From Escherichia coli (GTDB lineage: Bacteria; Pseudomonadota; Gammaproteobacteria; Enterobacterales; Enterobacteriaceae): a stretch of DNA of 64,000 nt. The notes beneath the pieces were generated by a model. It was not told where the DNA came from and made no database searches. It saw only the letters and a program-made list of their open reading frames with translations. Numbering within the stretch: position 1 is the first letter of the stretch; every line of letters starts with the position of its first letter. A program made the translations under genes and the position numbers. Where the stretch lies: assembly GCF_050920415.1 (NCBI RefSeq), contig NZ_CP169309.1, one strand, 5' to 3'. Shown here piece after piece: positions 3,190 through 3,316 of this stretch.

Positions 3190-3316
3190 ATCCTGTGGGT
3201 TTCTTTACAAGGATAAATCTTTACTTGATTTTAGTGTATTCGATCCTTTTGCAACTTGCATGTTAATTTAAACTTGATGTATTCTTGATTTATAAAGTTA
3301 ATATTGGTGCTTTGTT
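3190..3316. promoter_or_regulatory. Divergent PRM/PR-like operator-promoter region between cI and cro-like gene
   Basis: AT-rich 127-bp spacer with three CTTGAT-containing repeats (TACTTGATTT, AACTTGATGT, TTCTTGATTT). Confidence 0.45.

Follow-up and report, generated by a model that had tools for sequence, protein, structure and literature searches.

A repeat cluster between divergent cI- and cro-type genes

We were interested in where the regulators of an Escherichia coli prophage act on its DNA, and in particular whether three short direct repeats between its cI- and cro-type genes form the operator. The analysis covered 64,000 nt of contig NZ_CP169309.1 (assembly GCF_050920415.1), referred to here as the window, and centered on the interval 3190–3316. 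An initial annotation had described three related decamers in this 127-bp interval (Table 1) and had read them as a tripartite operator distinct from that of lambda. Sequence reading and an exact search of the window confirmed the decamers and placed their common hexamer, CTTGAT, on the + strand at 3224–3229, 3273–3278, and 3284–3289; the hexamer is all that they share, as the flanking bases match weakly. The whole-window count of CTTGAT was not enriched (43 observed vs. 37 ± 5.8 expected). The cluster was rare in shuffles: Groups of at least three same-strand copies within 127 bp turned up anywhere in the window in 12 out of 1000 block shuffles, and shuffling the interval alone produced such a group once in 20,000 trials.

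The proposed cI/cro setting was borne out by Pfam matches and by the strands of the two genes, which diverge from start codons at 3183 (- strand) and 3317 (+ strand) across a 133-bp gap. RefSeq labels the pair merely "XRE family transcriptional regulator" and "transcriptional regulator," and in PHROGs both are transcriptional repressors, with Cro in PHROG 35. CI matches HTH_3 (4.9e-8) and Peptidase_S24 (4e-17), and Cro matches YdaS_toxin (1.9e-12) and P22_Cro (8.7e-5). Ser143 of the CI GDSM motif and Lys180 of its VKRLQ motif align with UmuD', and both are invariant in 21 homologs, as is the cleavage motif S-[C/A]-G at residues 97–99. The predicted two-domain fold of CI (mean pLDDT 77.6) matches lambda CI, 186 CI, and LexA; by sequence, its matches among solved structures were restricted to UmuD/LexA C-terminal domains and, marginally, the 434 N-terminal domain (2r63, E = 0.0095). 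CI is thus equipped as an SOS-inducible repressor, with self-cleavage predicted from these motifs.

Both genes have a Shine-Dalgarno sequence 7 nt ahead of the ATG: AGGA for cI (TCCT at 3191–3194 on the + strand) and GGTG at 3306–3309 for cro. The GC-rich stem of the terminator that follows cI (AACGGGC...GCCCGTT) is kept in nine of 10 loci from other genera (described below) and missing in one (L090). On the other side of the region, an antirepressor-like gene and two C4-antisense-RNA modules lie just downstream of cro in the prophage, and an ORF6N/ANT gene comes after cro.

Inverted repeats flank a leftward promoter

The initial annotation had proposed searching for these half-sites elsewhere, for example in a left operator beyond the window. 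The half-sites were indeed found, but inside the window (2379–2442), ∼0.8 kb from the right operator and on the far side of cI. They were first shown by a repeat finder as two 17-mer inverted repeats of the form ATCAA-N7-TTGAT (OL-1 and OL-2), and a window search returned OL-1 as the sole intergenic exact match to this pattern. The two lie on either side of a strong leftward promoter, the region's best promoter-like match. Allowing two mismatches made the pattern barely informative (51 matches vs. 38 expected), and it was replaced by a scoring matrix.

We aligned the cI-cro gap with those of close relatives (PhiR49_2, Stx2_14040, Stx2d_112808, and phi467; CI 88%–100% identical). The core at 3213–3308 was almost invariant among PhiR49_2, the O145:H28 Stx2a/Stx2d phages, and phi467, so that divergence was too low to resolve individual sites, and more distant loci were therefore used. 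Eighty IMG/VR loci yielded 40 distinct gap sequences; the tally of decamers covered 95 loci with 42 distinct sequences, and an anchored alignment covered 14 lineages. A cross-genus set was made up of ten loci (CI 72%–84% identical) from Citrobacter, Atlantibacter, Klebsiella, Cronobacter, Salmonella, Pantoea, and Leclercia. One further homolog (P0038, CI 51% identical) had no contig position and was left out of the locus comparison.

Downstream of cI, each of the ten cross-genus loci has two near-perfect palindromes, [A/G]TCAAGTTAAACTTGAT. The equivalent of OL-1 reads ATCAAGTTAAACTTGAT in eight of the 10, and that of OL-2 reads GTCAAGTTAAACTTGAT in eight of the 10, always 47 bp from OL-1. The dyad symmetry is perfect over 17 bp in 16 of these 20 sites, and the order operator, -35, -10, operator recurs in every one of the ten loci. 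A possible third left site in the window (2358–2374) was rejected, having no counterpart of 5 bits or more in any cross-genus locus.

The predicted operator unit is a 17-bp palindrome

The matrix that we ran over the window (63,984 positions) was symmetrized and trained solely on the 20 left-operator sites of the foreign loci; right-operator sites of the foreign loci were kept out of the training set. The training sites hardly differ among themselves, and the matrix therefore amounts to little beyond the consensus. Six positions scored 8 bits or more, compared with ∼0.77 expected per Markov-shuffled window, and five of the six best matches fall in two intergenic regions within 930 bp, namely OL-1, OL-2, and three sites in the cI-cro gap that we denote Oa, Ob, and Od (Table 1). 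The remaining match, at 48727 (9.1 bits), lies inside a 352-aa ORF and was set aside as probably due to chance; it scores as high as Oa (8.3 bits) and Od (8.8 bits). In the ten foreign loci, every match of at least 5 bits sits in the right or left operator region, and the right-operator sites (Ob and Od) score 8.8–21.2 bits. An unbiased count of 6-mers in the intergenic regions of these loci pointed to the same core, with ACTTGA, AACTTG, and CTTGAT as the most enriched (p = 1e-68 to 1e-79). The predicted operator unit is accordingly a 17-bp palindrome with the consensus ATCAAGTTnAACTTGAT and the half-site AACTTGAT.

Table 1. Genes, putative operators, and candidate promoter elements of the immunity region (window coordinates)
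Feature	Sequence	Position	Strand	Remarks
First gene of leftward operon		1887–2348	-	153-aa HTH protein; Pfam HTH_3 1e-11; PHROG 4836 "CII-like regulator"
Possible third left site, doubtful	AACAATTTTAAATTGAA	2358–2374		Rank 8, 6.1 bits
Putative operator OL-1	ATCAAGTTATAATTGAT	2379–2395		Rank 1/63,984, 20.9 bits; at ∼+1 of leftward promoter
PL-like promoter	TTGACA-17-TAATAT	2402–2430	-	Consensus scan, 10/12 matches; reads into the 153-aa HTH gene
Putative operator OL-2	GTCAAGAAAAAATTGAT	2426–2442		Rank 3/63,984, 16.1 bits; overlaps leftward-promoter -35 by 5 bp
Intrinsic terminator after cI		2466–2482	-	Terminator scan; separates cI from PL region
cI-type repressor gene		2494–3183	-	229 aa; N-terminal HTH and C-terminal S24 self-cleaving domain
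Putative operator Oa	ATAAATCTTTACTTGAT	3213–3229		Rank 6/63,984, 8.3 bits; right half holds decamer 1
Decamer 1	TACTTGATTT	3222–3231	+	Within cI-cro gap
Putative cI promoter (PRM-like) -10	TACACT	3233–3238	-	Start would be at ∼3226, inside Oa
Putative PR -35	TTGCAT	3256–3261		Complement ATGCAA is the only candidate -35 of the leftward cI promoter
Putative operator Ob	GTTAATTTAAACTTGAT	3262–3278		Rank 2/63,984, 16.9 bits; right half holds decamer 2
Decamer 2	AACTTGATGT	3271–3280	+	Within cI-cro gap
Putative PR -10	TATTCT	3280–3285	+	18 bp after TTGCAT
Decamer 3	TTCTTGATTT	3282–3291	+	Ob-Od spacer; probably not an operator
Putative operator Od	ATAAAGTTAATATTGGT	3292–3308		Rank 5/63,984, 8.8 bits; without CTTGAT
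cro-type gene		3317–3616	+	99 aa, YdaS-family helix-turn-helix

The three sites in the gap are of unequal strength: Ob is the strongest right-operator site in the window, and Oa and Od are weak. From start to start, Oa and Ob are 49 bp apart and Ob and Od 30 bp apart, and these distances vary little across lineages (49–51 bp and 30–32 bp). In Oa, TAAA and CTTGAT show no variation across the 14 aligned lineages, in contrast to the central 5 bp and the two flanks, which vary freely; the hexamer is retained in all 42 distinct sequences. Oa scored below 5 bits in six of the 10 foreign loci, and the case for it therefore comes from this conservation pattern and not from the matrix. Ob shows the pattern GT.AATT...CTTGAT in all lineages and retains its hexamer in 41 of the 42 distinct sequences. 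Every lineage also has a palindrome-like 17-mer 13–15 bp after Ob (for example ATCAAGTTAATATTGGT in L012, ATCAAGTTATACTTTAT in L086, and ATCAATTGCAACTTGAT in L088), at the position of Od, whose end is the cro Shine-Dalgarno sequence. In the cross-genus loci these Od sites, unused in training, score 10.5–21.2 bits.

The same layout runs through all ten cross-genus gaps. Oa has the form [A/G]TAAAG-N5-CTTGAT and is followed by 32–34 bp ending in an invariant TTGCAT; then come Ob, as GT[T/C/A]AATT..A.ACTTGAT, 13–15 unconserved bp, and a degenerate palindrome corresponding to Od. In the anchored alignments the half-sites are invariant and the centers and flanks variable, which is the pattern of a footprint. 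The positions and half-sites of the putative Oa, Ob, and Od are conserved over at least eight genera.

The third decamer is an unconserved spacer stretch

How do the original three decamers relate to these sites? The first two correspond to the right half-sites of Oa and Ob, and CTTGAT is the core of the predicted half-site. The third falls outside the operators, in the spacer between Ob and Od, over the last two bases of the putative PR -10 and the discriminator. The 17-mer ending in its CTTGAT (3273–3289) scored -7.4 bits (rank 141), and the flanking sequence holds no palindromic partner for it. Its CTTGAT was found in 20 of the 42 distinct sequences (61 of 95 loci), all of the E. coli lineage, and was missing from all ten cross-genus loci and from L076–L084. 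Even among the closest relatives it is not stable. In L005, L012, L024, and L030, whose CI is 100% identical, the hexamer reads CTTGTG (region ATTCTTGTGTTATCAAGTTAATATTGGTG), and the site at 3292–3308 is improved to ATCAAG...; in phi467-type phages it reads CTTGAA with a 1-bp insertion (CTTGAATTT). A lack of conservation in homoimmune phages, which the initial annotation had named as a way to refute its reading, is therefore seen for decamer 3; decamers 1 and 2 are conserved.

The idea that three direct CTTGAT decamers, each its own binding unit, make up a tripartite operator draws on real features: Three same-strand copies within 66 bp are improbable by chance, the hexamer does appear to be the operator core, and the third copy is present in most loci of the E. 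coli lineage. We nevertheless regard this version as very unlikely. Dimers of helix-turn-helix repressors recognize inverted repeats as opposed to direct ones, and the conserved sites are plainly palindromic; the third copy lacks an inverted partner and is lost or altered in the relatives listed above; and the conserved site at 3292–3308 is left unexplained. A right operator of three sites thus stands, but its unit appears to be the 17-bp inverted repeat and its third member Od. The initial annotation found the true half-site core and missed the true unit and the true third site. The third CTTGAT itself is, as far as its conservation and score indicate, an unconserved spacer stretch, and we see no indication that it has a function.

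The sites co-occur with CI and Cro

The palindromes are presumably bound by CI dimers and by Cro, a pairing of sites and proteins that we infer from their joint occurrence across loci. Each of the ten foreign loci encodes CI and a Cro of the YdaS type, and the Cro HTH segment (SQRAIAxxLGxTPQAVNQWF, kept in 10 out of 10) and most of the CI HTH are conserved alongside the sites. A negative control points the same way. In L095, whose CI is 37% identical and has a different N-terminal domain, the palindromes read ATACGC..GCGTAT, and the best matrix score is 6.2 bits. Relatives with the recognition helix SAQTVVYW instead of SAQSVQYW retain the same sites, which is unexpected if the helix alone sets specificity.

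Binding by some other protein would most naturally involve the 153-aa HTH protein, which has an HTH_3 domain and whose gene lies immediately downstream of the left operator, or a host protein such as IHF, as ATCAA belongs to the IHF consensus. The gene beside the left operator varies among the cross-genus loci, where it mostly encodes unrelated small proteins without an HTH match and is absent in L094; the operators stay constant, and the 153-aa protein is therefore not the common binder, the sites traveling instead with CI and Cro. The IHF consensus, WATCAANNNNTTR, is asymmetric, and IHF sites are not palindromic. The sites described here are palindromic, and on both strands their ATCAA is followed by GTTA and then by AAC or TAA, not TTR. 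Together with the change of sites where the CI N-terminal domain changes (L095), these observations leave binding by the 153-aa protein or IHF, in place of CI and Cro, a highly improbable explanation.

Candidate promoters and a proposed switch

In a consensus promoter scan the leftward PL-like promoter was the sole match of the region; neither PR nor a cI promoter (PRM) was called, and we therefore treat these two as hypothetical. Conserved hexamers and their spacing nevertheless suggest where they may lie, and we judge the resulting promoter logic about evenly balanced between right and wrong. TTGCATGT is invariant in the 14 aligned lineages, and a single variant, L070, has TTGTAT. In every lineage a TAnnnT-type hexamer follows TTGCAT by 16–18 bp, directly after Ob; counterparts of the putative PR -10 are TGaTATTAT (L085 and L086), TGaTATCCT (L088 and L094), GATAAT (L090), and TATAGT (L093). 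On the cI side, a TAnAnT hexamer (TACACT, TAGACT, TAAAAT, or TAAACT) sits at a constant distance from Oa in all lineages amid differing surroundings, and 17 bp upstream of it there is only ATGCAA, a poor -35. The putative PR and PRM would share 6 bp as -35 elements on opposite strands, an unusual arrangement.

Several other pairings were tried and rejected. A cI promoter of TTAACA (3266 to 3261), a 17-bp spacer, and TCGAAT mirrors the PL layout, but its -10 is unconserved (TGGTGT or TGTTGT in other genera). PR as TTGATG plus TAATAT with a 19-bp spacer, or as TTTAAA or TTAAAC plus TATAAA, is unconserved across genera and disturbed by the 1-bp insertion of phi467.

The notion that the conserved blocks are merely elements of several overlapping promoters, with TTGAT resembling the -35 TTGACA and no repressor recognition involved, has next to no chance of being correct: The OL-2 half-site does overlap a genuine-looking -35 TTGACA, and TTGATG (3274–3279) forms a weak promoter-like pair with GTTAAT 17 bp on, but a perfect 17-bp dyad in 16 of the 20 foreign left-operator sites is no promoter property, the sites are found on either side of -35/-10 pairs, the first and third TTGAT have no -10 at 16–18 bp, and the pairing of the second is unconserved in other genera.

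Returning to repressor binding at palindromes, we consider it probable, from comparative sequence evidence, that Oa, Ob, Od, OL-1, and OL-2 form the five-site operator map of a lambda-type lysis/lysogeny switch. Ob would occupy the spacer of PR, and Od would span PR from about +1 to +17; because Ob would fill the spacer and Od would cover the start, CI bound there would exclude RNA polymerase from PR and shut off cro and the lytic genes. Ob abuts the putative cI -35 and is centered ∼44 bp upstream of the predicted start, so that CI at Ob could activate cI. Oa would cover the cI start, and the promoter would be shut off at high CI or upon Cro binding. RecA-stimulated self-cleavage of CI at Cys98-Gly99 would lift repression. 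By analogy, the arrangement suggests that Ob, Od, and Oa might play the parts of OR2, OR1, and OR3, respectively, at spacings of 30 and 49 bp.

A bolder version has the switch more compact still. PR and the cI promoter would both use TTGCAT/ATGCAA at 3256–3261 as their -35, and since the hexamer would be shared, RNA polymerase could occupy only one of the two at a time; a single CI dimer at Ob would close one promoter while bringing polymerase to the other. Furthermore, as the half-site is kept over at least eight genera despite the change in the recognition helix, prophages across genera may share one immunity specificity. The two proposals taken together strike us as rather unlikely, and we offer them as speculation.

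Distribution and significance of the immunity region

The immunity region was present in 135 out of 5426 complete E. coli genomes. Its carriers include long-tailed Stx2a/Stx2d phages from O145:H28 and other STEC, and prophages in many other Enterobacteriaceae have related regions. That the repeats define the immunity specificity of the prophage, as initially proposed, is plausible for the operators but incomplete, given the presence of the antirepressor-like gene and the C4-antisense-RNA modules.

Published work links CI type to toxin production and sorts Stx phages by CI type. Stx phage CI, including the 93%–94% identical CI of Stx2_14040-type phages, has been cataloged by clade or type (PMC8951638; bioRxiv 10.1101/2024.03.06.583675), and the available portions of these two sources, which classify proteins, yielded no operators for this CI type; the second notes that the early region still calls for molecular analysis. 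The operator sequence was likewise not found in the open-access literature. What we describe is thus a putative lambda-type operator set for an immunity type for which we found no characterized set in the literature. A map of three right and two left sites with a common consensus would predict homoimmune prophages and mutations that alter induction, and would inform reporter design. A lambda-type design was to be expected, and the gain is therefore a correct annotation and not a new principle; for an ordinary lambda-type switch, the biological interest of the map is low to moderate.

Comparison with known switches

The closest parallel in design is lambda. Both have a divergent repressor and cro, a CI that combines an N-terminal HTH with a C-terminal S24 domain (the predicted fold here matches 3bdn, 8gmu, and 1kca), and three related, imperfect 17-bp palindromes in the gap, with related sites at a leftward promoter beyond cI. 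In lambda a site lies beside the weak -35 of the repressor promoter, and Ob would do so here; lambda OR2 sits at a position relative to PRM similar to that of Ob relative to the putative cI start. The operator sequences are unrelated: The lambda consensus is of the TATCACCGCCAGTGGTA type, and its imm-lambda form (TATCACCGC/GGTGATA) was not encountered here, where the half-site is AACTTGAT. The initial claim of an operator distinct from that of lambda is therefore upheld. Spacings differ as well, at 49 and 30 bp in the right operator and 47 bp in the left, compared with 23–24 bp in lambda, so that pairwise cooperativity of the lambda kind cannot be assumed. Unlike in lambda, only two left sites are convincing, the left and right operators are only ∼0.8 kb apart, Cro belongs to the YdaS family, and cI has a Shine-Dalgarno sequence and would have a leader of ∼40 nt instead of being leaderless.

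As in 434 and P22, the N-terminal domain belongs to the HTH_3 class, with marginal sequence similarity to 434. The operator of 434 has 14 bp (ACAA..TTGT) and that of P22 18 bp, with other spacing, and there is no sign of a shared specificity; P22 operators share an AAG....CTT core, which may serve as a lead.

A second parallel comes from the CP-933P cryptic prophage switch of E. coli O157:H7 (PaaR2/YdaS/YdaT), in which a YdaS-type protein acts as Cro (PMC8630535, PMC9986795). Among switches with such a Cro it is the best studied. It, too, is lambdoid-like, with a YdaS-family Cro analog, analogs of PR, PRM, and PL, and repeated palindromic operators in both the right and left regions. Its operators are 18-bp palindromes with the half-site GTTTAGTAA, and hence of a different specificity; its repressor PaaR2 belongs to a toxin–antitoxin operon; and its ydaS is followed by a gene for YdaT (CII-like), whereas no ydaT follows cro here. 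YdaT of CP-933P binds TTGATT-N6-AATCAA (PMC8630535, PMC9986795), in which the half-sites have the opposite orientation to those described here. On direct reading, this YdaT-type sequence was absent at either TTGATT of the cI-cro gap.

Finally, the Eru7-type Stx2a/Stx2d phages of O145:H28 (for example Stx2_14040 and Stx2_112808) have a CI 93%–94% identical to the one studied here and the same Oa/Ob/Od core, although the flanking genes of the Stx2_14040-type phages differ from those of the phage in the window.

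Predicted operator half-sites and other motifs

The operator half-sites ATCAAGTTAAACTTGAT are unchanged in two of the cross-genus loci, L091 (Citrobacter) and L092 (Klebsiella aerogenes), despite a change in the presumed recognition helix of CI, the predicted repressor, which reads SAQTVVYW in both and SAQSVQYW in the window. This would be unexpected if the presumed recognition helix were the sole determinant of specificity.

Copies of CTTGAT, the core of the half-site, also occur outside the operators. Between 1840 and 2910, the minus strand carries seven of the 43 matches in the window, one of which (2379–2384) is the left half of the left-operator site OL-1. 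The other six were rejected as operator half-sites and are coding sequence, since all of them lie within genes, either cI or the HTH gene that encodes the 153-aa protein; of the four copies in cI, at least three coincide with Leu-Asp codon pairs (VLDV, ELDP, and FLDK). In relatives, the product of the HTH gene is annotated as "DicA" or "transcriptional regulator". A further match to the operator matrix, GTCGAGCCAAACTTGAC at 48727–48743 (9.1 bits), is located in a 352-aa ORF (48096–49154) and is probably due to chance. The perfect palindrome between Oa and Ob, two of the inferred operators of the cI–cro gap, is probably incidental as well, because its left arm lacks conservation, reading TGAAAC in Stx2 phages and being replaced by unrelated sequence in other genera.

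Predicted features of the prophage
Feature	Position	Strand	Evidence or remark
153-aa protein gene, first in the leftward operon	1887–2348	−	C-terminal HTH_3; PHROG 4836 "CII-like regulator" (1.3e-76)
Perfect 11-bp palindrome TGCAACTTGCA	3250–3260		Between Oa and Ob; overlaps the inferred −35 region
Antirepressor-like gene, ORF6N + KilAC/ANT	3693–4547	+	Pfam (1.6e-20); PHROG 63 "anti-repressor Ant"
70-aa ORF, next after the antirepressor-like gene	4544–4756	+	Annotation of counterpart
isrK-like sRNA then C4 antisense RNA, two tandem copies	4828–5016, 5481–5669	+	Rfam, scores above gathering
STnc490 sRNA family match	11891–12005	+	72 bits
STnc100 sRNA family match	12205–12393	+	114 bits

Antirepressor-like gene and sRNA matches

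The antirepressor-like gene is the immediate 3′ neighbor of cro, and the next ORF, of 70 aa, has a counterpart in strain STEC309 that carries the annotation "Lar family restriction alleviation protein". The STnc490 and STnc100 matches both lie within the prophage.

In the window, each isrK-like/C4 pair has a Rha/pRha-like ORF downstream. Immunity of this prophage is probably layered, with CI and Cro not its sole determinants, because the pairs look like an antirepressor control module of the P1 immI type, here duplicated and placed inside the operon of PR, the inferred rightward promoter of cro.
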